A stretch of DNA of 64,000 bases, taken from the IMG/VR virus record IMGVR_UViG_3300047546_001437, positions 8,667 to 72,666 of that record; one strand, written 5' to 3'. Shown here piece by piece: positions 1,421 to 20,055 of this stretch. Each line of letters opens with the position of its first letter. The stretch's first letter is position 1. Made by a program: the position numbers and the translations under genes. Below the pieces are notes generated by a model. It was not told the DNA's origin. It was given only the letters and a program-made list of their open reading frames with translations, and searched no databases. This stretch comes from a virus.

Positions 1421-2716
1421 ATGGCTGAAGACATTGGTAATATTTACAAGACGAAGATCCCATCTTATGCTGAGGCAGCAGATATACAAGCAGCCCTAAA
1501 ATTATTTCATTATGGAACAACAACAGTACCAACCACAGAGGGTGAAATTCTTGCAGATTCTTTGGCTGGACATTTAAAAGCATTAGATACCAGACTTGAC
1601 ACAATAGAATCAGATCCAGCACGTTCAGACTTCCTGACTCAGGCTGAAATGGCAGTATCTTTTCCTACAAGAGTTAATGGATATATTTCAATGGATCCAA
1701 ACTCAAATGGCGGATCTGTCGAAGAACTTTATGCATCAGCAATTTATTCTAATGAACCACCAACAGTTGGATTGGTCAATGGTTTAATTTGGGTAGATAA
1801 AGATTCTCCTGCATTAGATACATATGTTTATGACTCTACATCAACACCGTCTCCTTGGGTACGAATTAATGATATTAAAAAAATTGTTCAGTCTAAGGGA
1901 GACTTGTTGGTAGGAAGCACAAGCGCAGATGTTGACAATCTGTCAGTTGGTGCTAATGGAACAGTTCTTACTGCAGATGACACACAAACACTTGGAGTTA
2001 AATGGCAAGCGGTATCAACATATTCGCAACCAACTCTTGGATCAACAGCAATTCCTTCTGGATCAACAATAAGTAATGTTAATGGTTTAACAATTAACTC
2101 TACTACTATTCCAACATCTAAAACTTTAGTTGCTACAGATTCTTATGCATACGTTATTCCATCTATGTCTGGTAACTCAGGAAAGTATTTGACAAATAAT
2201 GGAGATACACCTTCATGGGCAACCCTTCCAACATCTGGGGGAATGACATTATTGGCAAGCGGAACATTAACTGGTGCTAGTATTTCTATTGATTCGATTA
2301 GTGGGTCGTATCAAGATTTGCGATTGATTGTTCGTAACTTTAGACCTGCTACAGACGGCGCAGCGCTTAATGGAAGGGTAAATAACGATTCTTCTGCTAT
2401 CTATGGTAATAGGACTGGAGTTGCTGAATCAGATAACAGTTTTAGCAATACATCTTGGAATAATTTAAGTTATAATCAAGATAATGGATCAAGCACAAGT
2501 TTAATACGTTTAACATTTATTGATTATGCTAATACTACAACATTAAAGGTTGCAGAACTTTATTCAGTAACAAATAATGAAACAACACCAACAAATATAA
2601 ACTATACAACAGGTATTGCAATTGCCAGAACTACAAGCGCTATTTCTTCAATACAACTATTTCCTAGTAGCGGTAATTTTACTTCTGGTAATTATTACCT
2701 TTATGGAGTCAAATAA
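1421..2716 (+). CDS. Tail fibre / receptor-binding protein
   Basis: Fibre-type motifs (GLIWVD, KGDLLVG...VGANGTVLTAD, GNSGKYLTNNG..SW) and a C-terminal beta domain ending 'SIQLF..GNF..G.YYLYGVK'. Confidence 0.65.
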   Translation: MAEDIGNIYKTKIPSYAEAADIQAALKLFHYGTTTVPTTEGEILADSLAGHLKALDTRLDTIESDPARSDFLTQAEMAVSFPTRVNGYISMDPNSNGGSVEELYASAIYSNEPPTVGLVNGLIWVDKDSPALDTYVYDSTSTPSPWVRINDIKKIVQSKGDLLVGSTSADVDNLSVGANGTVLTADDTQTLGVKWQAVSTYSQPTLGSTAIPSGSTISNVNGLTINSTTIPTSKTLVATDSYAYVIPSMSGNSGKYLTNNGDTPSWATLPTSGGMTLLASGTLTGASISIDSISGSYQDLRLIVRNFRPATDGAALNGRVNNDSSAIYGNRTGVAESDNSFSNTSWNNLSYNQDNGSSTSLIRLTFIDYANTTTLKVAELYSVTNNETTPTNINYTTGIAIARTTSAISSIQLFPSSGNFTSGNYYLYGVK

Positions 2717-4953
2717 TGTCAACAGTTAGTTCATCAAGCAAAGTAGCATACATGTATGACGCAGCGTCAGATACTTGGTATGCAGTTGCTGGTGTTGCTA
2801 ACACAAATGTCCCATACTCTTGGACTCAAACACATACATTTGGTTCTGTAGTTACAGCAAATGATGTTATTCGTGCTAAGGCTGGTGTAAATAGATTCCA
2901 AAATCCTGCTGCTAGAGATGCAGTTATAACATCTCCACAAGAAGGAACTGTATGCTATGTTGAACAAACAAATGGCGGAACAGATATTAAAGAGATTCAA
3001 TGTTATGTAAATGGAAGTTGGAGAGGACTAACCAATACCGCTTTATTTGTTGAAAAAGTTTCAAATCATACACTAAATATATCTGATCCAGGGAAAACAG
3101 TATTAATGAATTCAGGAACAAGTGTTAATGTTACAGTTCCTTCAAATACTGATGTTCAATTTGCTATAGGACACACGATTAAAGTAGTTGCTATGGGTGC
3201 TGGTACTGTAAATTTTGTTGAAGGTTCTGGAGTAACAATATTAAGTAAAAACTCTAGTAAAACAATTGCCTATAGATACGGAGAAGCAGAATTAAAGAAA
3301 ACTGGAACAAACACTTGGCTACTTACTGGAGATTTAATTACTGGTGGAGGATTACTTTCTACTTTTAGTGTTACTTATGATTGTGATGGTGGAAGCAACT
3401 GTCCAGCAAACTCAAGTCACGCAAGCCCATATACAATACCATCAACTATTCCTGTAAAATCTGGATACCAGTTCCTTGGTTATGAAGTATCAGCAGCACC
3501 TGGAGCACTTTGTGTATTCCCATCAGTAGTTCCAAATGCACAGCCAGGACATACTATTAATTGTGAGTCTAACCTAACCATTAAGGCAGTCTGGACACCA
3601 TTACATACAGACCCACCATCAACTACCCAGGCAACTACCCAGGCAACTACCCAGGCAACTACCCAGGCAACTACCCAGGCAACTACCCAGGCAACTACCC
3701 AGGCAACTACCCAGGCAACTACCCAGGGTACAACAGAAGGAACTACACAGGGTACTACTCAAGGCACTACTGCATCAACAACCACCACTAGCGGTGGAGG
3801 ACAGGTAGTTTGTGGCGACTGTGAGGCATATACTGTTGAACAGCCTACCTGTAATGGAGAAGATGTTTATGTTGGTATTTATACTGGAACAAGAAAACTA
3901 TGTTCTGATGGATCATATCAGATTTGTACACAGCCAACACTTACTTCGTGGGGAGCATGCGTTGCAACAAATGTAAGTTCTTGTGGCGGTTCTGGTGGAT
4001 CTGGATCTCCATGCATAGCAACAACAACCACAACTGCTGGTCCGTACAACCCACCTACTGAGGCAACAACAACCACAACTGCTGGTCCGTACAACCCACC
4101 TACTGAGGCAACAACAACCACAACTAGTGGATATGGGGCACCAACAAGTGCAACCACCACAACAACACAAAATTGTACGCCAGTTCAAACTACTAATGAA
4201 GTAAGAGTATGTAATGGAACTCCAACATCTGTTGTAATGTATGTAAACCCATGTACAGGTGCTGAATCGTGGACATGTCCAGAAACCACAACCACAACTG
4301 CGGCTCCTTACAACCCACCTGCTCAAGTAACTACAACTACAACAGCAGCACCAGTAGCAACTACAACTACAACAGCAGCACCGACAATTACAACAACACA
4401 AAATTGTACGCCAGTTGCAACAAATAATGAGGTTAGAACCTGTAATGGTGTACCAACAAGTGTTGTAATTTATGTAAACCCATGTACAGGTGCAGAATCA
4501 TGGAATTGTCCACCTGCTGCAACTACAACTGCTGCACCAGCAGTAACTACAACTGCTGCACCATATAATCCACCTGTTCAAGCAACAACAACTGCTGCAC
4601 CAACAGTAACTACAACTGCTGCTTCAACTGTAACTACAACAGCAGCATCAGGTGGCGGTGGATGTGTAAGTTATGCTGATTTTGCTTGTGGATGGGATTG
4701 GAGCGGTCAATATGACTGTGCTGGTAACTGTGTAGGAGTTAATCCACAACCTACAACAACAGAAGCATCATCTGGCTCAGGAGGCACTGGCTCAGGAGGC
4801 ACTGGCTCAGGAGGCACTGGATCAGGAGGCACTGGCTCAGGCGGATCCAATACAACTGAGGCTACACAAGGTACAACTGCAGCAGATCCATGTTCACAAT
4901 GCTCATCATGTGAATATTGCTATGCTGGGGCATGCTGGAGTGATGGCTGTTAG
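2716..4953 (+). CDS. Mucin-like tail-associated protein: fibre adaptor domain + InlB B-repeat-like domain + Thr-rich repeats interspersed with small Cys-rich domains
   Basis: 'VTYDCDGG...P.KSGYQFLGY...LTIKAVW' resembles an InlB B-repeat; TTQA, TTTTTA and GSGGT tracts; many Cys in C-terminal half; coupled (TAATG) to upstream fibre gene. Confidence 0.7.
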   Translation: MSTVSSSSKVAYMYDAASDTWYAVAGVANTNVPYSWTQTHTFGSVVTANDVIRAKAGVNRFQNPAARDAVITSPQEGTVCYVEQTNGGTDIKEIQCYVNGSWRGLTNTALFVEKVSNHTLNISDPGKTVLMNSGTSVNVTVPSNTDVQFAIGHTIKVVAMGAGTVNFVEGSGVTILSKNSSKTIAYRYGEAELKKTGTNTWLLTGDLITGGGLLSTFSVTYDCDGGSNCPANSSHASPYTIPSTIPVKSGYQFLGYEVSAAPGALCVFPSVVPNAQPGHTINCESNLTIKAVWTPLHTDPPSTTQATTQATTQATTQATTQATTQATTQATTQATTQGTTEGTTQGTTQGTTASTTTTSGGGQVVCGDCEAYTVEQPTCNGEDVYVGIYTGTRKLCSDGSYQICTQPTLTSWGACVATNVSSCGGSGGSGSPCIATTTTTAGPYNPPTEATTTTTAGPYNPPTEATTTTTSGYGAPTSATTTTTQNCTPVQTTNEVRVCNGTPTSVVMYVNPCTGAESWTCPETTTTTAAPYNPPAQVTTTTTAAPVATTTTTAAPTITTTQNCTPVATNNEVRTCNGVPTSVVIYVNPCTGAESWNCPPAATTTAAPAVTTTAAPYNPPVQATTTAAPTVTTTAASTVTTTAASGGGGCVSYADFACGWDWSGQYDCAGNCVGVNPQPTTTEASSGSGGTGSGGTGSGGTGSGGTGSGGSNTTEATQGTTAADPCSQCSSCEYCYAGACWSDGC
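3622..3729 (+). repeat. Perfect 12-bp tandem repeat ACTACCCAGGCA x8 plus one variant (TTQA)
   Basis: Read directly from sequence. Confidence 0.95.
4018..4125 (+). repeat. 45-bp tandem repeat x2 plus partial (ATTTTTAGPYNPPTE)
   Basis: Read directly from sequence. Confidence 0.9.
4159..4512 (+). repeat. Duplicated 4-Cys mini-domain (TTTQNCTPV..NEVR.CNG.PTSVV.YVNPCTGAESW.CP), two copies
   Basis: Copies at about 4159-4280 and 4390-4512. Confidence 0.85.
4774..4845 (+). repeat. 15-bp tandem repeat GGCTCAGGAGGCACT x4 plus partial (GSGGT linker)
   Basis: Read directly from sequence. Confidence 0.9.
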
Positions 4954-5196: not shown

Positions 5197-5433
5197 ATGT
5201 CAGAGTTGTCTGCTTGGCAAAAATACAAGCAAAATCTTGGCGAAACTCGTCCATGGGATTTGCTAAATCCAAATACACAATACGTTTCTGAGTATGAAAG
5301 TGACAAAAGATTTTCTATTTGTCAGGGGTGTCCAGAATTAATTGCACTTACAACTCAGTGCAAAAAATGTGGATGCATTATGAAATTAAAAACAAAACTA
5401 GAAAAGGCAACATGTCCATTAGGAAAATGGTAG
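5197..5433 (+). CDS. Small Cys-rich metal-binding protein (DUF6171-like)
   Basis: R..ICxxC...QCxxCGC...K......CPLGKW pattern. Confidence 0.6.
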   Translation: MSELSAWQKYKQNLGETRPWDLLNPNTQYVSEYESDKRFSICQGCPELIALTTQCKKCGCIMKLKTKLEKATCPLGKW

Positions 5434-5448
5434 ATATAATCAATAATT

Positions 5449-6330
5449 ATGGACAAAATATTTGTATCTATTGCATCTTATAGAGATCAAGAATTACTAG
5501 ATACTGTTTTTTCTATTTTAAAACAAGCAAAAAATCCAGAAAGACTATTTTTATCAATATTTTCTCAGGATGACAATCACCCAAATTTAGAACACTTGTT
5601 TGAGTTGTTTAACGTGAAACATTATGTTTATAAAAAAATACATTATAGCGATGCTCGTGGTGTTGGTTATGCTAGAGCAGAAACCCAAAAACCTTTAAAT
5701 AATTCTTATAAATATTATTTACAAGTAGACAGTCATACACAGTTTATTGAACACTGGGATGAAAAAATCGTAGATCATTACGAAAAGGCTATAGGGTATT
5801 GGGGAGACCTGATCTTTACAGCCTATCCAGGCACCTATGAGTACACAGAAACAGGCAACCTAAAGTTTGCTACCGTTCTTGTTCCAACATGCCTTAGAAT
5901 CCAACCTGCGACTGAAAACAGCCCAATCAGGTTTGAACCAAAATATAAGGACTATGTTGGCGGAGACATAGGTGAGTTTCATGGATATTTTTGTGCTGGT
6001 TTGGCTTTTGGATACTCTGAACATTTTTTAAAAGTTCCGTATGATGATCAAATTTATTTCAATGGAGAAGAGCAAACACTAGCAATAAGATTTTATTGTA
6101 ATGACATTAAATTGGTTGCTCCACCATACAATTATTGTTTTCATCATTATACTGGTAAAAAACGCATAAGACATTGGGAGCAAAGTGAAACCTGGAAAAA
6201 ATATGATGAAATTGGTACAAAAAGATTAAATGATTTTTACGAATATAAACTAGATGCCACATACGGTATTTCCAATAAAGAAAAGTACCATATGTGGCAA
6301 TCTTGTTTTGTAACTCCTAGAGTTACTTAG
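5449..6330 (+). CDS. GlcNAc transferase, GT60/PF11397-like (Gnt1/TcOGNT-type polypeptide or hydroxyproline alpha-GlcNAc transferase)
   Basis: 'IFVSIASYRD', 'RGVGYAR', 'LQVDSHTQF..HWD', 'VPYD..IYFNGEE..LAIR', 'FHHY' match the GT60 signature as I recall it. Confidence 0.8.
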   Translation: MDKIFVSIASYRDQELLDTVFSILKQAKNPERLFLSIFSQDDNHPNLEHLFELFNVKHYVYKKIHYSDARGVGYARAETQKPLNNSYKYYLQVDSHTQFIEHWDEKIVDHYEKAIGYWGDLIFTAYPGTYEYTETGNLKFATVLVPTCLRIQPATENSPIRFEPKYKDYVGGDIGEFHGYFCAGLAFGYSEHFLKVPYDDQIYFNGEEQTLAIRFYCNDIKLVAPPYNYCFHHYTGKKRIRHWEQSETWKKYDEIGTKRLNDFYEYKLDATYGISNKEKYHMWQSCFVTPRVT

Positions 6331-6883
6331 GGAATTTTTCCATCCACTGTTTTGTTCTTTGGGTTAGACCCTTCCAAGAACTCCAGTCCTGTCCTCCATT
6401 GGACATATGATATGCAATTTCTGCATTTATTACTGGATTAAATAAGTCTGCATTATGGTCTAACTCAAATTTGTCACGACGATCTAGACCAAGAACACCA
6501 AGCATATTAATCTGAAAGATACCATACGAACTGTCACCAGTTGAGATATTTCCGTTAAATGCTAGTGGACGACCATTACTTTCTTTTTTAGCAACAGCCC
6601 ATGCCTCCTTTAGATTTTGACCTTCAAAGCCCACTAACTTCAGTAGATTTTTTAGGTCTTTGTCAGATAGAGATGTAGCGTTTTGATATTTTTCTAACTG
6701 ATCTTCTTTAGCCTTAGAAACGACTTTGGCCACTTCCGTGGCCTCTATTGTTTCTGTCAGCACGACACTAGTGCCGTCTAATCGGTTTTCAGAAGCATTA
6801 GCAGCGTTTGACCAAACGGCAAACATTGCCAATATGCTGAGTGTACCAATGATTTGCCTGTTATTATTCATAAAGTTAATCAT
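6323..6883 (-). CDS. Secreted lytic transglycosylase / lysozyme-like (SLT, Rpf-related) protein
   Basis: SD AAGGAGG before ATG 6883; N-terminal hydrophobic signal ending ANA; catalytic 'KKESNG', 'SYGIFQIN', 'LFNPVINA', 'WSSW'. Confidence 0.8.
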   Translation of the reverse strand: MINFMNNNRQIIGTLSILAMFAVWSNAANASENRLDGTSVVLTETIEATEVAKVVSKAKEDQLEKYQNATSLSDKDLKNLLKLVGFEGQNLKEAWAVAKKESNGRPLAFNGNISTGDSSYGIFQINMLGVLGLDRRDKFELDHNADLFNPVINAEIAYHMSNGGQDWSSWKGLTQRTKQWMEKFPK

Positions 6884-6937
6884 AGTTTCCTCCTTAGAAA
6901 CGAATGACACCTTTTTAGGGGTGCCATGTTACTTCTT

Positions 6938-13116: not shown

Positions 13117-13125
13117 TAGTATAAT
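13117..13125 (+). promoter_or_regulatory. -10 promoter (TAGTATAAT) heading the 13.15-17.9 kb operon
   Basis: Followed by SD AAGGAG (13135-40) and ATG 13151. Confidence 0.55.
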
Positions 13126-13150
13126 TTAAAAAATAAGGAGATTGATCTAG

Positions 13151-14278
13151 ATGGCACTATCAAGAGGTAAAGGTGGAAGAAACATTAGAAAGGCGTCGGT
13201 GCCTTCCTTTGACCAAACATATACAAGAAGTTCATACCAATCATATTTATCAAGCATTGGTCTGTTTTATTCAGAAAACTCTACCAACACCTCTGATAGT
13301 GGTCTAGATCAGCGCTGGAATTCACAAAATATTGCTCCAGGTACAGTAGTTCCATTTGGAACAACTATTGGTATTAATTACTACATTTATGTATACCCTG
13401 GTTTTAGCCATTATGGTGGTTTCTATCATGGCTTCTATCATGGATTTGGTCACTATGCTGGATTTACACACTATGCAGCATTTAGCCACTATGCTGGTTT
13501 CACACACTATGCAGCATTTGGACACTATGCAGCATTCGGACACTATGCAGCATTCGGACACTATGCTGGATTCTATCATGGTTTCTATCACTCATTTGCA
13601 CACTATTCTTCATTTGCACACTATTCTTCATTTGCACACTACGCAAACTTTAGCCACTACTATAGTGGATTCTCTCATGGTTATGGCGGATTCGGACATG
13701 GTTATGGCGGATTCGGACATGGTTATGGCGGATTCTATCATGGATTCGGACACGGTTATGGCGGATTCGGACACTACGGTGGCTTTGGTGGTGGCGGAGG
13801 TGCCAGAGGCTACTCAATTGGTGGAGAAACTGGTCTATTAAGTCCAACAGGAGTTATCTTGGCTGAAAACTTAAAGGTAGGAGACAAGTTATTAGCACTA
13901 GATATTTCAGAAATAGATATGGCTGGATTTAATCCTTCACAATGGTCTTCAGAAACAATATCTGGAAACGGTATAGTAGAGACAACAGTAGTATCAATTA
14001 ATAGCAGAGTCTCAGATCGTGCTATTGTTATAAATGGAGATATTTACTCTATACATCACTGGATCTTAGCAAGAAAAGATGGCGTTATTAGATTCGTAAG
14101 TTCTTCAGACATAGATACAACATATGAAGTTTATAACTTCCAGACTCTAGACTGGGTCGAGGTTCAGTCTGCTGAAAGTATCGCTTACATTGATAGAGTT
14201 TATACAATTAACTGTGAGCCTTACGATATGTTCTTTACTAACTCAATGTTAGTATATGACCGAGTAGAAACTGACTAA
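13151..14278 (+). CDS. PASTA-like domain + Phe-x-His/Tyr/Gly repeat tract + C-terminal Hint (intein/Hedgehog-like) domain
   Basis: 'VP.F...L.SIGL......SQNIAPGTVVPFGTTI.I' PASTA-like; 22 FxH units; Hint blocks 'SIGGETGLLSPTG...AENLKVGDKL', 'YSIHHWIL', 'VYTINCEPYDMFFTNSMLVYD'. Confidence 0.75.
   Translation: MALSRGKGGRNIRKASVPSFDQTYTRSSYQSYLSSIGLFYSENSTNTSDSGLDQRWNSQNIAPGTVVPFGTTIGINYYIYVYPGFSHYGGFYHGFYHGFGHYAGFTHYAAFSHYAGFTHYAAFGHYAAFGHYAAFGHYAGFYHGFYHSFAHYSSFAHYSSFAHYANFSHYYSGFSHGYGGFGHGYGGFGHGYGGFYHGFGHGYGGFGHYGGFGGGGGARGYSIGGETGLLSPTGVILAENLKVGDKLLALDISEIDMAGFNPSQWSSETISGNGIVETTVVSINSRVSDRAIVINGDIYSIHHWILARKDGVIRFVSSSDIDTTYEVYNFQTLDWVEVQSAESIAYIDRVYTINCEPYDMFFTNSMLVYDRVETD
13403..13790 (+). 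repeat. Degenerate 12/18/21-bp tandem repeats encoding FYHG, FxHYAA/AG/SS and FGHGYGG
   Basis: e.g. GGACACTATGCAGCATTC and GGATTCGGACATGGTTATGGC units read directly. Confidence 0.9.
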
Positions 14279-14279
14279 T

Positions 14280-15026
14280 TTGGCCAGACTACCCAATCAC
14301 GATTACTATTCTGATGAGTGGGCAAACGAACCATTCATAATACCTGATCAATTATTGGCATTACAGCAAAAAAGAATTGGCAGTGCAACACCATATAGCA
14401 TAAGCCCTCAAATTGCAACATTTACTAGAAAGTATAGTGAAAAAATACAAAATGCTCCAGATCACGATGCTGTAGAATTTGCAAAATATGAGGTAGATTG
14501 GCAAAAAGAATATCGTGAGCAAAAACATTTATTTGTTCCGCAAAATCGATGGGCACATGAAGTTGTTGAGCCACCAGTTCACATAAAAGATAATTTATAC
14601 AAAATAAATGTATCTGCTGATGTTTATCCACATTTAGAACCTTTAGAGCATCAGTATGAAGAATCTGGAACAATCATACGTGAAAAAGAATATAGGTTTA
14701 TTACTAGAACACTTTATAAGTATGTGGATGCTACAAAAAATGTTGTTTTGGAAAAGGATTTAGATCCAGAGTGGTGTTCGAGAGTTTATGTTTGGAAAAT
14801 TAGATGGCTACCACAAAAACCAGCAGTTTTAACATTTTTTTCAAATGAGGATATGGTATACTGGAAGACACCAGAAACAATAGTTGATACAAAAGATATT
14901 GCAGAAGATGCACAAGGAGTGATAGACGTGCCAGTTATATTTAAAAAAGGACTTAAGCGCAGTATGCACTACATAAAGCATGATACAACAATACTATATA
15001 TGAAGGTAGATTTTCATGAAGAATAA
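14280..15026 (+). CDS. Hypothetical protein, possibly a diverged member of the family at 15016 and 15732
   Basis: TTG start 1 nt after upstream stop; C-terminal 'VWKIRW...VIFKKG...IKHDTTILYM' echoes 'VWDMRW...FLRKDFEGTIKKGTPIMSI'. Confidence 0.55.
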   Translation: MARLPNHDYYSDEWANEPFIIPDQLLALQQKRIGSATPYSISPQIATFTRKYSEKIQNAPDHDAVEFAKYEVDWQKEYREQKHLFVPQNRWAHEVVEPPVHIKDNLYKINVSADVYPHLEPLEHQYEESGTIIREKEYRFITRTLYKYVDATKNVVLEKDLDPEWCSRVYVWKIRWLPQKPAVLTFFSNEDMVYWKTPETIVDTKDIAEDAQGVIDVPVIFKKGLKRSMHYIKHDTTILYMKVDFHEE

Positions 15027-15732
15027 AACAAACATTATAACATTTATACCTAAAAATGAATTTGTTATAGAGTATACAGATAAACCAGAACCTATGATAA
15101 AAAATCTTCCTTCTTGGTGGAGAAAGGTTCATCCATATGTTAATGGAGAAAAAACTTTACGTAATGGTCAATATAGTGAGACTGTAAAAAAGTGTCCTGG
15201 AATATTAGATTTGCTATCTACAGGATATTTATTAAAAACACCATGCGATATTTTTCTAGATGCAACTGGACCAAAACTAGATTGGCAAGTTCACCATGCA
15301 CACAAAGAATCTGTTACAGTTCATTCTCAACCACAAGTTGAAGGCTGGGATTTTGACAAAAATGATTGGATGGAAGATATATTTAGAATTCATCCAATGT
15401 GGGTAGTAGCAACAGAAAAAGGTTATAGTACTTTATTTGTGCAGCCATCATTTCATACAAGCCTACCATTTGAAATAGTTCCAGCAATTATTGATACAGA
15501 CATGTATCCTTCAGATGGACCATTCTCTATGAGAGTTAAAAGAGGCTTTAAAGGTGTCCTAGAGGCAGGAACTCCACTAGTTCAATGTATTCCTTATAGA
15601 AGAGAAAAGTGGGAAGCAAATATACTTGAAAAGCCAGATTTGAAAGTTTTAAACTCTATACCTTGGAAATTAAGGCATAAGTTTGGCGGGGCATACAAAA
15701 AACTTATGTGGGAAAAGAAGGTGTTTAATTAA
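15016..15732 (+). CDS. DUF6065-like protein (dUTPase-like C-terminal pattern), paralog 1
   Basis: 'LP.WW.K...TVKKCPGILD..STGY', 'W.V.T.KGYS.LF..P', 'IIDTD', 'F.G.LEAGTPLVQCIP.RRE.W'. Confidence 0.6.
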   Translation: MKNKTNIITFIPKNEFVIEYTDKPEPMIKNLPSWWRKVHPYVNGEKTLRNGQYSETVKKCPGILDLLSTGYLLKTPCDIFLDATGPKLDWQVHHAHKESVTVHSQPQVEGWDFDKNDWMEDIFRIHPMWVVATEKGYSTLFVQPSFHTSLPFEIVPAIIDTDMYPSDGPFSMRVKRGFKGVLEAGTPLVQCIPYRREKWEANILEKPDLKVLNSIPWKLRHKFGGAYKKLMWEKKVFN

Positions 15733-16493
15733 TGGATAAATTTGAAGAAAGATATGCAAACCCAGAACCACTTGAAAATTTAAAGGTTCAGTTTTATACA
15801 TCTAATGCATATGTAAATACAACTCCTGGTCCAGTGCCAGCAATTGACAATCTTCCAGAATGGTGGAAGGATCGTCCTATATATCAAAAAAATGATCAAA
15901 TTGATAGACTATCTATCATGAATAATCGTGGTGCAGATGCTGCATCAATTAGTGTAAAGCATTGTATGCCATTTTTTGATGCAATAACTTGTGGATATCA
16001 TTATTTATTGCCAACAGATGTTCATGTTGCAAAAACAGAAGACCCAGATAGACCAGATATTTGGTGGGATGAAGATGCTCCAAGACCAATTGAGATGCGT
16101 GGTCATTTAGAGTTACCAGTTCCATCTGGATGCTATCCAATTCATTTTGTTTGGGATATGAGATGGGGAACAAAGATGCCAGACGGATGGTCTGCAATGA
16201 TCACACACCCTATAGACAGATATGATTTACCATTCTTTACTATGACAGCCATACAGGATTCTGACAGATGGTTTACTGGAAACGTTGTTACCTTCTTTTT
16301 AAGAAAAGATTTTGAAGGTACAATTAAAAAGGGTACACCAATAATGTCAATTATTCCAATAAAAAGAGCAAACTGGAATATGGAAATAGACCATTCCCTA
16401 CAAACTGAGGGTTTATGGGATCTTGAAAGAAAAAGAAATTACATTTATGGATTTTATAAAAAACATAGATGGATCAGAAAGAAATATAGATAG
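15732..16493 (+). CDS. DUF6065-like protein, paralog 2
   Basis: 'LPEWWK...SVKHCMPFFDAITCGY', 'W..K.PDGWS.MITHP', 'IQDSD', 'FEGTIKKGTPIMSIIPIKR..W'; TAATG-coupled. Confidence 0.6.
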   Translation: MDKFEERYANPEPLENLKVQFYTSNAYVNTTPGPVPAIDNLPEWWKDRPIYQKNDQIDRLSIMNNRGADAASISVKHCMPFFDAITCGYHYLLPTDVHVAKTEDPDRPDIWWDEDAPRPIEMRGHLELPVPSGCYPIHFVWDMRWGTKMPDGWSAMITHPIDRYDLPFFTMTAIQDSDRWFTGNVVTFFLRKDFEGTIKKGTPIMSIIPIKRANWNMEIDHSLQTEGLWDLERKRNYIYGFYKKHRWIRKKYR

Positions 16494-16501
16494 GATAAAT
16501 A

Positions 16502-17164
16502 ATGGAAAAACATTACGAATATGGTGATGCTAATCAACCAAGTAATAGCAAGTCTACTAAAGAGCATAAATTCTTCGATAGAAATATAGAGATTAATAAT
16601 CTTGAACAACTTGAGAAATTATTAATTACTCAATATGAAAGAATTAATCGTGGAGAGATTATTAAGGGGAACAAAAATGAGCATACCCCTTGGGATCAAT
16701 CTGGTAGTGCAACTACAATAAATTGGAATAAGTATAATGTCTTTCAATTCTATGATGAGAATATCTATACTCTTTTCAGAGCGGTAAGAGACATGACAGT
16801 TGATGCTTGTCAGCATTATGAATTAGATTTTATAAAAGAACAATTTTATGTTCAGGGATGGTTCAATGTTAACTATAACCATATTGGAAAGTTAGATTGG
16901 CATGAACATGGTGGAGAAGGTGCACCACATTTCCATGGCTATTATTGTGTAAAGGCAGAGCCATCTAAAACTCATTATAGAGTTTTTGAAAAAGAAATTG
17001 AAGTAAATAATAAAAATAACCGTGCCATTCTTTCAGAAACTGGCCATCCTCACGCAATGGGTGACTGGGATTGGGATGGACCAAGAATCACAATAGCATA
17101 TGACGTAATTCCACTAAGATTTATACCAAAAGAGTGGGAACAACACTGGATACCACTAATCTAA
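16502..17164 (+). CDS. 2OG-Fe(II) oxygenase-like (double-stranded beta-helix) protein
   Basis: 'QGWFNVN...WHEH...FHGYYCV...HPHAM......RITIAYD': HxH, distal His and RxT 2OG-binding pattern. Confidence 0.7.
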   Translation: MEKHYEYGDANQPSNSKSTKEHKFFDRNIEINNLEQLEKLLITQYERINRGEIIKGNKNEHTPWDQSGSATTINWNKYNVFQFYDENIYTLFRAVRDMTVDACQHYELDFIKEQFYVQGWFNVNYNHIGKLDWHEHGGEGAPHFHGYYCVKAEPSKTHYRVFEKEIEVNNKNNRAILSETGHPHAMGDWDWDGPRITIAYDVIPLRFIPKEWEQHWIPLI

Positions 17165-17174
17165 GGAGGAAGTT

Positions 17175-17288
17175 ATGGACGTAAGAATAGAAATTGCTGG
17201 TCAATATCAGTTCACTGTTATTAAAGAACTAGCAGATCTTCTGGCTAAAGAATGCCCAGATACAGTTAAACTTGTCATTGAGGAATAA
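17175..17288 (+). CDS. 37-aa small protein (MDVRIEIAGQYQFTVIKELADLLAKECPDTVKLVIEE), missed by ORF track
   Basis: Strong SD AAGGAGG; fills the gap between flanking genes. Confidence 0.6.
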   Translation: MDVRIEIAGQYQFTVIKELADLLAKECPDTVKLVIEE

Positions 17289-17291
17289 TTA

Positions 17292-17633
17292 ATGCGTATA
17301 GCATCTTTAACTTTCTTAATGCTATTAGTATCTTTGATGGTAGGTTTAGTGATCTATAAATATACTATAGACACAAGACTTACCATTAAAGAACTAAAAA
17401 AAGATCGTGATACCTATAGAAATAATATTTGGAATTTCATGAAGGGTATGGATAAAGAAAGAAAACGTATGGAACAAATAAATGAACAAACAAATAATTT
17501 GGCCTATACTAATTTAAAGAAAAAGATTAAAAAACTTCATGATGACATAGAGGATACAGATTTTACAACTTTTGAAAATGTAAAAGAAGAAATTTTGTCT
17601 TCATTAAAGGATATAGACTCATATGGCGATTAG
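17292..17633 (+). CDS. Membrane-anchored coiled-coil protein
   Basis: N-terminal hydrophobic helix followed by charged helical region. Confidence 0.6.
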   Translation: MRIASLTFLMLLVSLMVGLVIYKYTIDTRLTIKELKKDRDTYRNNIWNFMKGMDKERKRMEQINEQTNNLAYTNLKKKIKKLHDDIEDTDFTTFENVKEEILSSLKDIDSYGD

Positions 17634-17826
17634 TATTAAAATAAACAAAGATTGCCAGGCTTGGGGTCAATGTGTATTTGATGCTCCAGAAGTATTTGAT
17701 TTAGTTGAAAGTGAAAGAAAGACCTGGAAGTATGTTGTAGATGATTCTCTTTTAGAAAAAGTAAAGATGGCTCATTCTCATTGTCCAAATAGAGCAATTT
17801 CTTTCGAGGTGCTTAAAGATGAATAA
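17623..17826 (+). CDS. Single-cluster ferredoxin (3Fe-4S type, actinobacterial P450-partner-like)
   Basis: 'CQAWGQCVFDAPEVFDL...CPNRAISF' = CxxXxxC...CP. Confidence 0.8.
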   Translation: MAISIKINKDCQAWGQCVFDAPEVFDLVESERKTWKYVVDDSLLEKVKMAHSHCPNRAISFEVLKDE

Positions 17827-17935
17827 AATTAAATGTTTAATTTTTGGTCACAGAATTGAAGAATCTTCTTGTCCATATACAATGAGGACATATCAAACCT
17901 GCATCCGTTGTGGATCTAAAGGTATTAAGTCTTAA
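17819..17935 (+). CDS. 38-aa putative Zn-binding protein (DUF1660-like; MNKIKCLIFGHR...C...CIRCGSK), missed by ORF track
   Basis: C..FGH...CxRCG pattern; overlaps ferredoxin stop. Confidence 0.6.
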   Translation: MNKIKCLIFGHRIEESSCPYTMRTYQTCIRCGSKGIKS

Positions 17936-17962: not shown

Positions 17963-17991
17963 TTTACAAAAATTAAAAACTCTGCTATACT
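17963..17991 (+). promoter_or_regulatory. Sigma-A-type promoter for nrdJ: TTTACA-N17-TATACT with TG extension
   Basis: Followed by SD AAGGAG and GTG 18025. Confidence 0.6.
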
Positions 17992-18024: not shown

Positions 18025-20055
18025 GTGTCAGATTTTTTTAGTTTTCGTTTGCCAGATGAGTTCATTAATGAGTATAAAGACAAGGAGTCGCCTTTTGGTT
18101 TTATAGACGCTGGTGGTAACTCATTAGGAGAGATTACCTTTATTAGAACCTACTCAAGAATGAAGGAAGACGGAACTAAAGAGCGTTGGCACGAAGTTTG
18201 TCGTCGTGTAATCGAAGGTATGTATTCAGTACAAAAGAATCATGCTAAGGAAAACAGACTACCTTGGAATGACTATAAGGCTCAGAAGTCAGCACAAGAA
18301 GCATTCCAAAGAATGTTTGAATTAAAGTGGACACCACCAGGTCGTGGTATGTGGGCATTTGGAACCCCTATGACCATGGAGAAAAAGAACTCTGCAGCAT
18401 TACAAAACTGTGCCATGGTTTCAACAAAGGACCTTGACAAGAATGATCCAGGAGCATTATTTGCTTGGGTTATGGACGCATTGATGCTTGGCATTGGTGT
18501 AGGGTTTGACACAGTAGGACAGGATAAGAATTTTCATATTTATGCACCTACAGAGCCAATTGTCACCTATGAAATACCAGACACACGTGAGGGCTGGGTT
18601 GAATCAGTTCGTCTTCTCTTGAACTCATTCCTTAGACCAAATCAAAATATACAGGAATTTAATTATGATCTAATACGTCCACTGGGAGCACCCATTAAGG
18701 GCTTTGGAGGGGTTGCTAGTGGCCCAGAACCATTAATTAGGTTACACAACAACATACGCACCGTCATTGGCTCTAGAAATGGCGAGACGCTTGATTCTAG
18801 GGCTATTGTTGATATTGTTAATTTAATTGGAACATGTGTTGTGGCAGGAAATGTTAGAAGGTCTGCAACACTTGCCCTTGGTTCTTCTGGAGACGAAAAT
18901 TTTATTAATTTAAAAAATCCAGAAATGTTTCCAGAACGAAACTCCTTTGACCCAGAAAATCCAGGTTGGGCATGGATGTCAAATAATTCTATATCTGCAA
19001 CAGTTGGAACAAATTATGAACAATATGTTGACAGAATAGTAGATAACGGAGAGCCAGGATTTATCTGGCTTGATGTAGCAAGAAACTATGGCAGACTTAA
19101 GGATGCGCCAGACGGTAAGGATTATAGAGTTATGGGCTTTAATCCTTGTGCAGAGCAGCCACTAGAGTCATACGAACTCTGTACACTTGTAGAAGTACAT
19201 TTAAATCGTCATGAATCCAAGGAAGACTTTTTGCGTACCCTTAAGTTTGCCTATCTTTATGGCAAAACAGTAACTCTTGTACCAACACATTGGCAACAGA
19301 CAAATGGAATTATGCAACGAAATCGTCGTATCGGTACATCACTTACTGGTATCGCATCATTCTCTGATAAAAATGGTTTGCCAACAGTTCGTGAATGGAT
19401 GGATGAGGGATATAATACAATACGTAAATATGATCATCAATATTCAGAATGGCTATGTGTGCGTGAGTCAATTCGTGTAACGACAGTTAAGCCTTCGGGT
19501 TCAGTATCAATTCTTTCTGGTGCAACCCCTGGGGTACATTGGGGTCCAGGAGGAAACTTCTTCCTTCGTGCAATTAGATTTGGTGAAACAGATCCAATGA
19601 TGCACCTATTTAAGGCTGCAGGTTATAAAATAGAAAAAGACCTGGTTTCAGCAAATACATCAGTTGTATATTTTCCAGTAAAATCTGGACATGCAAGATC
19701 AGAAAAAGATGTAACATTATTTGAAAAGATTGCTCTTGCAGCAACCGCTCAAAAATATTGGTCAGATAATGGTGTTTCTGTAACATTATCCTTTGATAAG
19801 GAAACAGAGTCAAAGCATGTCGCACCAGCACTACACATGTATGAAGGACAACTAAAGGCTGTTTCTTTCCTACCCATGGGCAACACGGTATATCCACAAC
19901 AACCGTATACACAAATAACAGAGCAAGAATATAATGAATATATTGGAAAAATCAAGAAAATTGATTGGTCTGCAATATATGACGGTGTAGATAATCTAGA
20001 GGCTCAAGGCGAGGCTTACTGCACAACAGATGCTTGCGAAATAAAAATCTCGTAG
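18025..20055 (+). CDS. nrdJ: Class II (adenosylcobalamin-dependent) ribonucleoside-triphosphate reductase, monomeric RTPR type
   Basis: 'PPGRG', 'LQNC', 'GNVRRSA', 'NPCAEQPL', 'TTVKPSG', C-terminal 'CTTDAC' redox pair. Confidence 0.93.
   Translation: MSDFFSFRLPDEFINEYKDKESPFGFIDAGGNSLGEITFIRTYSRMKEDGTKERWHEVCRRVIEGMYSVQKNHAKENRLPWNDYKAQKSAQEAFQRMFELKWTPPGRGMWAFGTPMTMEKKNSAALQNCAMVSTKDLDKNDPGALFAWVMDALMLGIGVGFDTVGQDKNFHIYAPTEPIVTYEIPDTREGWVESVRLLLNSFLRPNQNIQEFNYDLIRPLGAPIKGFGGVASGPEPLIRLHNNIRTVIGSRNGETLDSRAIVDIVNLIGTCVVAGNVRRSATLALGSSGDENFINLKNPEMFPERNSFDPENPGWAWMSNNSISATVGTNYEQYVDRIVDNGEPGFIWLDVARNYGRLKDAPDGKDYRVMGFNPCAEQPLESYELCTLVEVHLNRHESKEDFLRTLKFAYLYGKTVTLVPTHWQQTNGIMQRNRRIGTSLTGIASFSDKNGLPTVREWMDEGYNTIRKYDHQYSEWLCVRESIRVTTVKPSGSVSILSGATPGVHWGPGGNFFLRAIRFGETDPMMHLFKAAGYKIEKDLVSANTSVVYFPVKSGHARSEKDVTLFEKIALAATAQKYWSDNGVSVTLSFDKETESKHVAPALHMYEGQLKAVSFLPMGNTVYPQQPYTQITEQEYNEYIGKIKKIDWSAIYDGVDNLEAQGEAYCTTDACEIKIS

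Follow-up and report, generated by a model that had tools for sequence, protein, structure and literature searches.

In a 64,000-nucleotide stretch of viral DNA (the window, from IMG/VR record IMGVR_UViG_3300047546_001437), nine open reading frames (ORFs) lie on the + strand at 13151-17935, separated by intergenic gaps of -11 to +10 bases. The first encodes a protein in which a Phe-x-His repeat precedes a C-terminal Hint domain, and the following ones encode three dUTPase-fold proteins, a 2-oxoglutarate (2OG)-Fe(II) oxygenase-like protein and four small proteins, which raises the question of what these neighbours act on. The initial annotation had described this tight coupling correctly and took the repeat for the substrate of the adjacent enzymes. 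The system is real, conserved and apparently undescribed, and it is considered here rather probable that in freshwater actinophages the repeat is part of a filament displayed on the virion and trimmed by Hint, and is modified by the cassette. This reading is built on the architecture of the locus, the folds of its products, their retained catalytic residues, the coupling of the genes and the co-variation of repeats with neighbours, all of which are directly observed. In what follows, D6 denotes the DUF6065-related dUTPase-fold family, F18 the degenerate-paralog family and F16 the first member of a related F16-D6-D6 triplet.

The precursor (375 residues; 13151..14278, + strand) comprises a basic N-terminus, a PASTA-like domain (approximately residues 14-80), the Phe-x-His tract and the Hint domain. 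The tract, which is the presumed substrate (13400..13813, + strand; residues 84-221, 138 residues), contains 22 F-x-H copies that hold all 22 of its His residues, while the best of 20,000 shuffles reached 10. Since synonymous codons are mixed along the tract, this result indicates that the F-x-H pattern is maintained at the protein level. The 33 tracts of the His type contain 566 His residues, all of them within F-x-H, and no charged residue among 3275; in the window protein's tract, a single Arg in the linker is the sole charged residue, so that the charge-free tract of about 130 residues announced initially stands as a repeat tract, with this one departure in charge. The PASTA-like domain is likewise supported through relatives: the window protein itself gave no Pfam match, and 13 of the 22 aligned His-type members match PASTA (best E 5e-9).

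The Hint domain (13814..14275, + strand) starts at Ser222, has Ser300 and His303 in block B and an invariant Cys355, and ends in Asp, not in His-Asn. Its identification by the initial annotation is borne out by profile matches to the bacterial intein-like (BIL) domain 2LWY (E 1.9e-6) and the gp41-1 intein, by the similarity over blocks A, B and F that is typical of the Hint superfamily, by matches to Intein_splicing in 10 of 22 aligned His-type members, and by 28% identity over 138 residues (E 7e-14) with the canonical Cys/His-Asn Hint domain of Alexandravirus. Ser occupies position 1 in all 24 aligned Hint domains; among 169 Hint proteins, the block-B Ser/Thr-x-x-His is kept in 162 and an F/Y/H-Asp pair replaces His-Asn in 160, the window domain ending in Tyr-Asp-Arg plus four residues. 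Given this replacement and the few residues that follow it, N-terminal cleavage is expected and splicing is not. The retention of Ser1 and of the block-B Ser and His suggests that the domain probably cleaves itself at Tyr221-Ser222, in line with the accessible part of a study on the roles of these residues, according to which the position-1 nucleophile and block B drive the N-terminal acyl shift (PMC4031507). Two other assignments were considered and rejected, namely a class 1 splicing intein, which would lie inside a host protein and require the C-terminal His-Asn, followed by a C-extein that starts with Cys, Ser or Thr, in place of Tyr-Asp-Arg and four further residues, and a class 3 intein, as the conserved Cys is not at F4 in the alignment as it was read. 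BIL and Hedgehog Hint domains are similarly C-terminal on surface-type proteins and retain the first nucleophile and the block-B His. Unlike them, the window domain has no His-Asn, the Asp expected at F4 is replaced, its invariant Cys lies at another block-F position, and it is coupled to an enzyme cassette, with a GNAT tied to the -1 residue in relatives.

The closest annotated counterparts are found in Alexandravirus jumbo phages (Dickeya AD1 gp108, Erwinia pEa_SNUABM; PHROG 38766), where a low-complexity repeat is also followed by a C-terminal Hint domain and the collagen-repeat proteins concerned lie in the tail-gene cluster and are labelled virion structural proteins, an annotation taken as it stands. 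They differ in having Cys1, a His-Asn end and Gly-X-Y units instead of Ser1, Asp and Phe-x-His, and in showing no tailoring genes among seven annotated neighbours. The virion display put forward by the initial annotation fits these relatives (PHROG 38766 match, E 3e-6) and the position of the gene, and it is kept here as a proposal.

Relatives were collected by scanning viral and metagenome contigs, with 80 of up to 546 matches kept per scan, and the matches came to 250 in viral and 175 in metagenome contigs in the scans concerned; gene labels come from cluster hidden Markov models (HMMs) of our own, and an oxygenase counts as intact when it satisfies a motif regular expression. This yielded 169 distinct Hint proteins (160 at first), with PASTA or Fn3-like N-termini and repeats of the kinds FxH, FGA, FPPF, FNPG, FTP/FSP, IIAEP and PPADP. 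A Hint profile search (E<=1e-10) returned 171 clusters at 50% identity, the more distant of which have Cys1 and His-Asn, the same FTP/FPPF repeats and bodies of up to 1108 residues. Cellular genomes gave one match, on a 10-kb contig of a metagenome-assembled genome, and cultured phages gave 12 records (Erwinia, Dickeya, Alcaligenes or Salmonella phages) in which the protein is labelled virion, tail or hypothetical; among the cultured phages searched, none with this cassette came up.

Within this collection, repeats and cleavage sites co-vary with the adjacent genes in three respects. Firstly, among 125 rows with a closed cassette or one of at least four genes, F18, two D6 genes and an intact oxygenase accompany 28 of 28 His-type repeats, while F18 is found in none of the 97 others; among 33 rows, the oxygenases of the His type fall together in a single starred clade of 19, which has an HEH motif, and the oxygenase relatives beside FTP/FSP repeats mostly have HDH. 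Secondly, an intact prolyl 4-hydroxylase (P4H)-like gene is present among the next six genes in 35 of 55 Pro-type rows, compared with 0 of 67 others (122 closed rows; simulated p 0.003), and any intact 2OG oxygenase in 77 of 83 His or Pro rows, compared with 0 of 39 others. Thirdly, a quick tree was built of 166 Hint domains, from which 21 rows without a cassette or in the second slot were left out; in the 145 kept, a Lys at position -1 of the Hint Ser coincides with an adjacent GNAT-like gene (53/53 versus 0/92), each trait having changed five times on the tree, and this agreement was reached by none of 4000 independent traits simulated with an equal number of changes. The Lys(-1) codon and the GNAT-like gene are separated by the whole Hint domain. 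The match belongs to the relatives and not to the window locus, but nothing else in the data speaks as strongly for an action of the genes in this slot on the Hint protein. The GNAT profile itself has five weak matches in the PDB, all of them acetyltransferases (E 0.08-1.8), and the GNAT-like gene is accompanied by a degenerate oxygenase; when second-slot copies are included, two Lys proteins have no adjacent GNAT. The co-variation check proposed in the initial annotation is therefore largely positive for adjacent genes (Lys with GNAT, Pro with P4H, His with F18).

At L352-L356, an Asn-Tyr-Gly repeat variant with Lys at -1 is accompanied by GNAT and P4H-like genes, and two pairs of loci on the same contigs (L104/L105 and L121/L140) carry two Hint-repeat genes with matching repeats (FGFTP/FGFTP and PPFP/PPFP), one of which has the adjacent cassette. 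In three further loci the repeat, DUF6065 and D6 are kept while the Hint domain is replaced by a short Cys tail, so that D6 accompanies the repeat even there, a point in favour of a link between the two: L202, L213 and L217 encode an Fn3 protein with a (Y/F)-x-FTP repeat and a four-Cys tail, followed by DUF6065, a gene that we take from its sequence to be Asp/Asn beta-hydroxylase-like, and D6.

The genes that follow the precursor immediately are the three dUTPase-fold paralogs. The first, the degenerate F18 protein (14280..15026, + strand), occurs only with His repeats and is always the next gene after the precursor; the second (protein a; 15016..15732, + strand; PHROG 7084) contains an invariant Lys58-x-Cys60; and the third (protein b; 15732..16493, + strand; PHROG 7084) belongs to a separate deep subfamily and is 71-93% identical among His-type loci. 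The window copies have no Pfam match, and DUF6065 (PF19541) is matched by 5 of 21 relatives below its cut-off (best E 1.6e-4). Nevertheless, a profile-profile comparison with true DUF6065 neighbours from the same loci gave Prob 89 and E 2e-6, the model of the 15016 protein (pLDDT 84.5) adopts the fold of trimeric dUTPases (Z 10.7, rmsd 3.1 over 120), and that of the 14280 protein (pLDDT 68) retrieves dUTPase-fold chains in each of the 21 highest-ranked rows (best Z 7.5, rmsd 3.5 over 115). These results support the two clear and one degenerate DUF6065-like paralogs of the initial annotation, the fold of the 15732 protein being assigned by homology. For the 14280 protein, Foldseek returned no match of the model at E<=0.001, and an Atlas search found only unnamed viral clusters, below 0.9. 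When the three paralogs were modelled as a complex with residues 150-375 of the precursor, the score was 0.00, in a run without controls, and it was used neither way.

As to their chemistry, the D6 proteins share the beta-barrel fold of trimeric dUTPases and dCTP deaminases, a motif-III-like Asp-x-Asp and the DUF6065 profile link. They differ from these enzymes in staying below the DUF6065 Pfam cut-off, in the absence of any PF00692 match in the record, in an incomplete set of the five catalytic motifs, in an invariant Lys-x-Cys and in forming three diverged tandem paralogs. Cys60 is invariant in 291 of 291 D6 proteins, and Lys58, Asp162 and Tyr227 are invariant as well, across phages, haloviruses and, in part, a cyanophage. 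A conserved His metal site was ruled out (His103 in 208 and His126 in 120 of 291), and so was a specificity for Phe, since D6 also follows Phe-free Ile/Val-Pro repeats. It has to be asked whether such proteins are enzymes at all. As non-catalytic assembly factors, dUTPase-fold trimers could thread three hydrophobic repeat chains, and only the oxygenase, or nothing, would alter the chain. In herpesviruses, whose ORF10 and UL82 are among the fold matches of the 15016 model, dUTPase folds without catalytic activity act as adaptors; a dUTPase-fold gene is found in 34 of 36 FGA cassettes, most of them without an intact oxygenase; and metal-type His residues vary across D6. However, the residues that remain invariant across phages, haloviruses and, in part, a cyanophage look catalytic, and D6 is also present in viruses without such repeats, which makes a purely structural role the least probable of the readings considered.

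If the invariant Cys is instead the centre of a reaction, the self-cleaving Hint domain could be a follower on an interchangeable repeat, and the D6 proteins could be enzymes that depend on this Cys, are fed by the ferredoxin and cross-link or derivatise Phe-x-His; in relatives, their targets would be other triplets of the aromatic-x-residue kind. The whole would then be a modular, phage-borne protein-tailoring system of a new type. This is a tentative proposal that we hold to be possible rather than likely; if true, it would give DUF6065 its first function and viruses a chemistry for metal-binding or adhesive filaments resembling that of ribosomally synthesized and post-translationally modified peptides (RiPPs). 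The initial annotation also envisaged a RiPP-like system with peptides released by Hint cleavage. In one form of such a system, the tract would be a multicore precursor whose F-x-H units are cross-linked and then freed by Hint and a Cys-dependent D6 step, to act as metal-binding or signalling peptides during infection. The strict i,i+2 Phe-His motif (566/566), the restriction of the ferredoxin to the His type, the invariant Cys60 and the lower conservation of the precursor relative to the cassette enzymes in His-type loci all agree with this, and a ribosomal precursor with a repeated core does lie beside modifying enzymes. Multicore RiPPs, biarylitides and triceptides likewise combine a repeated core with oxidative enzymes, ferredoxin and aromatic-x-His spacing, and a three-residue aromatic cross-link of F-x-H is presumably comparable to theirs. 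Nevertheless, no signal peptide is evident, the cassette lacks genes for a protease, an exporter, a P450 or a radical-SAM enzyme, the units follow one another without a spacer or cleavage motif, and library scans gave no family match for a RiPP leader or follower, a maturation protease or an exporter, although Hint could act as a follower or release device. Moreover, the repeats are joined to folded bodies, which are PASTA, Fn3-like or very long and fibre-like, with up to 1108 residues; some repeats lack aromatic residues, and the window precursor itself has several folded domains and belongs to a virion module. A RiPP system of this kind is accordingly improbable.

The modification of a displayed filament is weighed against several findings that speak for a looser bond between enzymes and repeats. 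On starred branches of the tree there are only three to four independent pairs (sign test p 0.25-1): three for Lys and GNAT, all in the same direction (p 0.25), and for P4H and Pro 0.8 of 4 supported pairs (p 1). The His set may represent one ancestral association, inherited as a single block (3 changes). Ser1 has been lost in the His-type members L070, P0217, P0232 and P0237 and, thus, cleavage is not universal. P4H-like genes occur elsewhere in 3 of 3 His-type genomes and 1 of 1 FGA-type genome searched, so that the P4H-Pro link holds for adjacency only. Of 79 loci with D6, 27 lack a neighbouring Hint gene; in one complete genome, a similar triplet with an oxygenase lies approximately 57 kb from an FGA-type Hint gene; and the D6 relatives in 58 cultured phage records belong to haloviruses and cyanophages. 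The initial annotation had named the occurrence of the enzymes independently of repeat-Hint genes as evidence against itself, and for D6 this is in part what these loci, haloviruses, a cyanophage and even the same genomes display. Its substrate reading is therefore upheld by co-variation at adjacent genes and weakened by D6 genes away from Hint neighbours.

The 27 Hint-less D6 loci consist of 21 with an F16-D6-D6 triplet together with glycosyltransferase and P4H-like genes, three that are cut off and three with a Hint-less repeat; a Hint search in five triplet contigs (31-48% complete) found none. The window D6 paralogs fall in deep subfamilies common to this triplet, which indicates that the trio is an old module and was not invented for His repeats. 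In the triplet loci (L184, L188-L193; L179-L228), glycosyltransferases and two P4H-like genes are accompanied by an upstream gene that is presumably carbamoyltransferase-like, to judge by its sequence, and no Hint gene lies in range. Extra D6 copies in complete genomes are located beside genes whose sequences read as halogenase-, sulfotransferase-, glycosyltransferase- and oxygenase-like, company that speaks for a tailoring role; one of them is flanked by a DNA-binding gene region on one side and the polymerase on the other. In Halorubrum virus HRTV-7, the D6 relative gp38 (L391:5905-6789) follows thymidylate synthase and faces tail adhesin genes, a location kept across cultured HF1/HF2-like haloviruses that makes it a tractable model, and the S-RIM4 gene lies near ribonucleotide reductase; no such repeat gene was seen in the two neighbourhoods inspected.

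These contexts bring in a further reading, according to which the locus is an accessory island with an unmodified fibre or decoration protein, whose neighbours are nucleotide, sugar-nucleotide or host-surface enzymes (D6 standing for dUTPase or dCTP deaminase) inherited as a block in a variable slot. It accounts for the dUTPase fold, for the proximity of D6 to thyX and nrdAB in other viruses and its frequent position immediately ahead of nrdJ, and for the scattering of D6 and P4H-like genes in genomes; since a canonical dUTPase was found in none of five records, of which four are 90% complete or more, D6 could act as its substitute. In the parts of the source available, similar enzyme clusters of cyanophages are interpreted as serving capsule decoration or metabolite synthesis (PMC7824862). 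On the other hand, the phosphate-binding dUTPase motifs II and V are not visible in the D6 alignment. This reading also leaves unexplained the match of a single Lys codon with GNAT over five changes, the absence of adjacent intact oxygenases in 39 non-His, non-Pro rows and the promoter that separates D6 from nrdJ. D6 lies a median of 12-20 bases behind the Hint gene and approximately 90 bases before nrdJ, and 42 of 44 D6-nrdJ gaps contain a conserved extended -10 promoter. An accessory island is therefore regarded as unlikely. In FGA-type loci (L045 and others), a conserved inverted repeat overlaps the nrdJ promoter in this gap and could be a terminator or operator.

Returning to the favoured reading, a filament modified by its cassette, the steps would be as follows. 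The precursor, whose gene lies with those of the tail fibres, would be made together with them and displayed on the virion, with PASTA as the cell-wall-binding end. The Hint domain would hold the C-terminus and remove itself at Tyr221-Ser222 through an N-O acyl shift, so that the repeat becomes a free or ligated end, and before or during this cleavage the neighbouring proteins would act on the repeat. The His-clade 2OG oxygenase would most likely hydroxylate a residue of the F-x-H(-Y) unit, while the three dUTPase-fold paralogs, probably forming one heterotrimer with the invariant Cys and fed by the ferredoxin, may perform a second redox-dependent step or chaperone the aggregation-prone tract during assembly. 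The product would be an uncharged aromatic, imidazole-rich filament tip suited to adhesion or metal binding, and relatives would exchange repeat and tools together, pairing Pro repeats with P4H-like enzymes and the cleavage-site Lys with a GNAT-like acylase. In its working the system would be akin to the modification of virion proteins by virus-encoded enzymes, and in outward form it resembles a multicore RiPP cluster.

The oxygenase (16502..17164, + strand; 2OG-FeII_Oxy_5-like, with His134, His136, His184 and Arg195) was read correctly at the outset. Its H-x-H/D...H triad and R-x-S/T motif are invariant in 18 of 18 His-type rows and its Atlas neighbours are 2OG-FeII_Oxy_5 (0.96), although it has no HMM match, its profile has none in the PDB, and direct Pfam and NCBIfam scans of the five large ORFs returned nothing. 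The small genes follow. The 37-residue ORF (17175..17288, + strand) is a conserved accessory element, for which 13 of 27 His loci have space and 10 the motif. A 113-residue protein with an N-terminal hydrophobic helix and a coiled coil (17292..17633, + strand) occurs only with His repeats, in all 25 closed His cassettes and in none of the 92 others; its identity as a spanin was not adopted, the PHROG matches being weak (E 4e-5). The three-cysteine, single-cluster ferredoxin (17623..17826, + strand) passes the Pfam cut-off and is present in 24 of 25 His cassettes versus 0 of 92 others, and a 38-residue DUF1660-like Cys/His mini-protein (17819..17935, + strand) in 19 of 25 versus 2 of 92. Hence, the membrane protein and the ferredoxin of the initial annotation stand, the 37-residue peptide is an accessory, and the Zn-binding protein falls just under the DUF1660 cut-off. 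In 13 of 25 closed His cassettes (L012, L014, L017, L018 and L083 among them) the cassette extends with a GT2 glycosyltransferase and often an NAD-dependent epimerase-like gene, and hydroxylated residues could be glycosylated there; L070 has three further inserted genes.

Substrates are unknown for many 2OG oxygenases, GNATs and DUF6065-like genes of aquatic phages, to which the papers, in their available parts, assign roles in host metabolism, DNA repair or surface polysaccharides. Thus, the oxygenase-glycosyltransferase-halogenase islands of cyanophages and pelagiphages resemble the window in placing tailoring-type enzymes near tail-fibre genes, and the accessible parts of their descriptions suggest functions related to the host surface, to metabolites, to 2OG or to DNA repair, with no protein given as a substrate (PMC7824862, PMC7029224, PMC3037559). 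In contrast, the window locus and its relatives supply adjacent, sequence-matched candidate substrates, i.e., the His repeat for one oxygenase clade, Pro repeats for P4H-like enzymes and the -1 Lys for GNAT, which makes the roles of the enzymes testable by co-expression. They also point to a widespread repeat-Hint module on phage surface proteins (171 clusters) and suggest that the dUTPase fold may have a function unrelated to nucleotides. In the open-access literature, supplements not included, no description of this cassette and no paper on DUF6065 was found.

The virus record from which the window is taken measures 72.7 kb, is 67% complete and also encodes a portal, a head protease, a tape measure, a DnaE-type polymerase and a helicase. 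Near-identical DNA was found in sequencing runs from rivers, lakes, estuaries and aquaculture, and WhiB, which serves as an actinophage marker according to the available part of PMC6802176, is above cut-off in four of four near-complete relatives and matched below threshold in the record itself; the genome is of the freshwater actinophage type. Three fibre-like genes lie upstream of the cassette. The last of them encodes an Mtd_N domain and matches many tail-fibre PHROGs, and the slot after the last Mtd_N fibre gene is the one used in the 71 loci of one relative scan. An independent DNA run yielded a single contig over 13612-18122 with 12 differences and no gaps, and contigs from RNA libraries (two studies) overlap parts of all five large genes, a type of evidence from which neither transcription nor strand nor one continuous transcript can be read.

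The single upstream promoter of the initial annotation comes down to a -10-like hexamer in the sequence (13120..13125, + strand), with no good -35 and with a ribosome-binding site at 13135-13140. It was not called by a promoter scan, whose total (44) equals that of shuffles (44.1); a similar hexamer is found in 21 of 32 His-type loci versus 26 of 116 other loci, and an extended -10 match lies within the 14280 gene, at 14854. The end of the operon was placed correctly, since the promoter of the next gene (17963..17991, + strand), which marks the cassette boundary, precedes the B12-dependent ribonucleotide reductase nrdJ (18025-20055).

Upstream in the window, a second repeat protein of 745 residues (2716-4953) contains Thr-rich TQAT and TTTA tracts and Cys knots and has no Hint domain. 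Beside it lie a DUF6171-like Cys protein (5197-5433) and a glycosyltransferase-like gene (5449-6330), which possibly forms a glycosylation pair with the Thr-repeat protein; in relatives, the same slot carries second Hint-repeat copies with P4H-like genes. A secreted-looking gene on the minus strand (6323-6910), presumed from its motifs to be lytic transglycosylase/Rpf-like, is conserved upstream of the fibre cluster and has no PHROG match at E<=1e-5. Finally, in Alcaligenes phage Afa-NA1 a 'large intein domain protein' (L393:7592-8818) is encoded three genes after the Hint-bearing tail protein.

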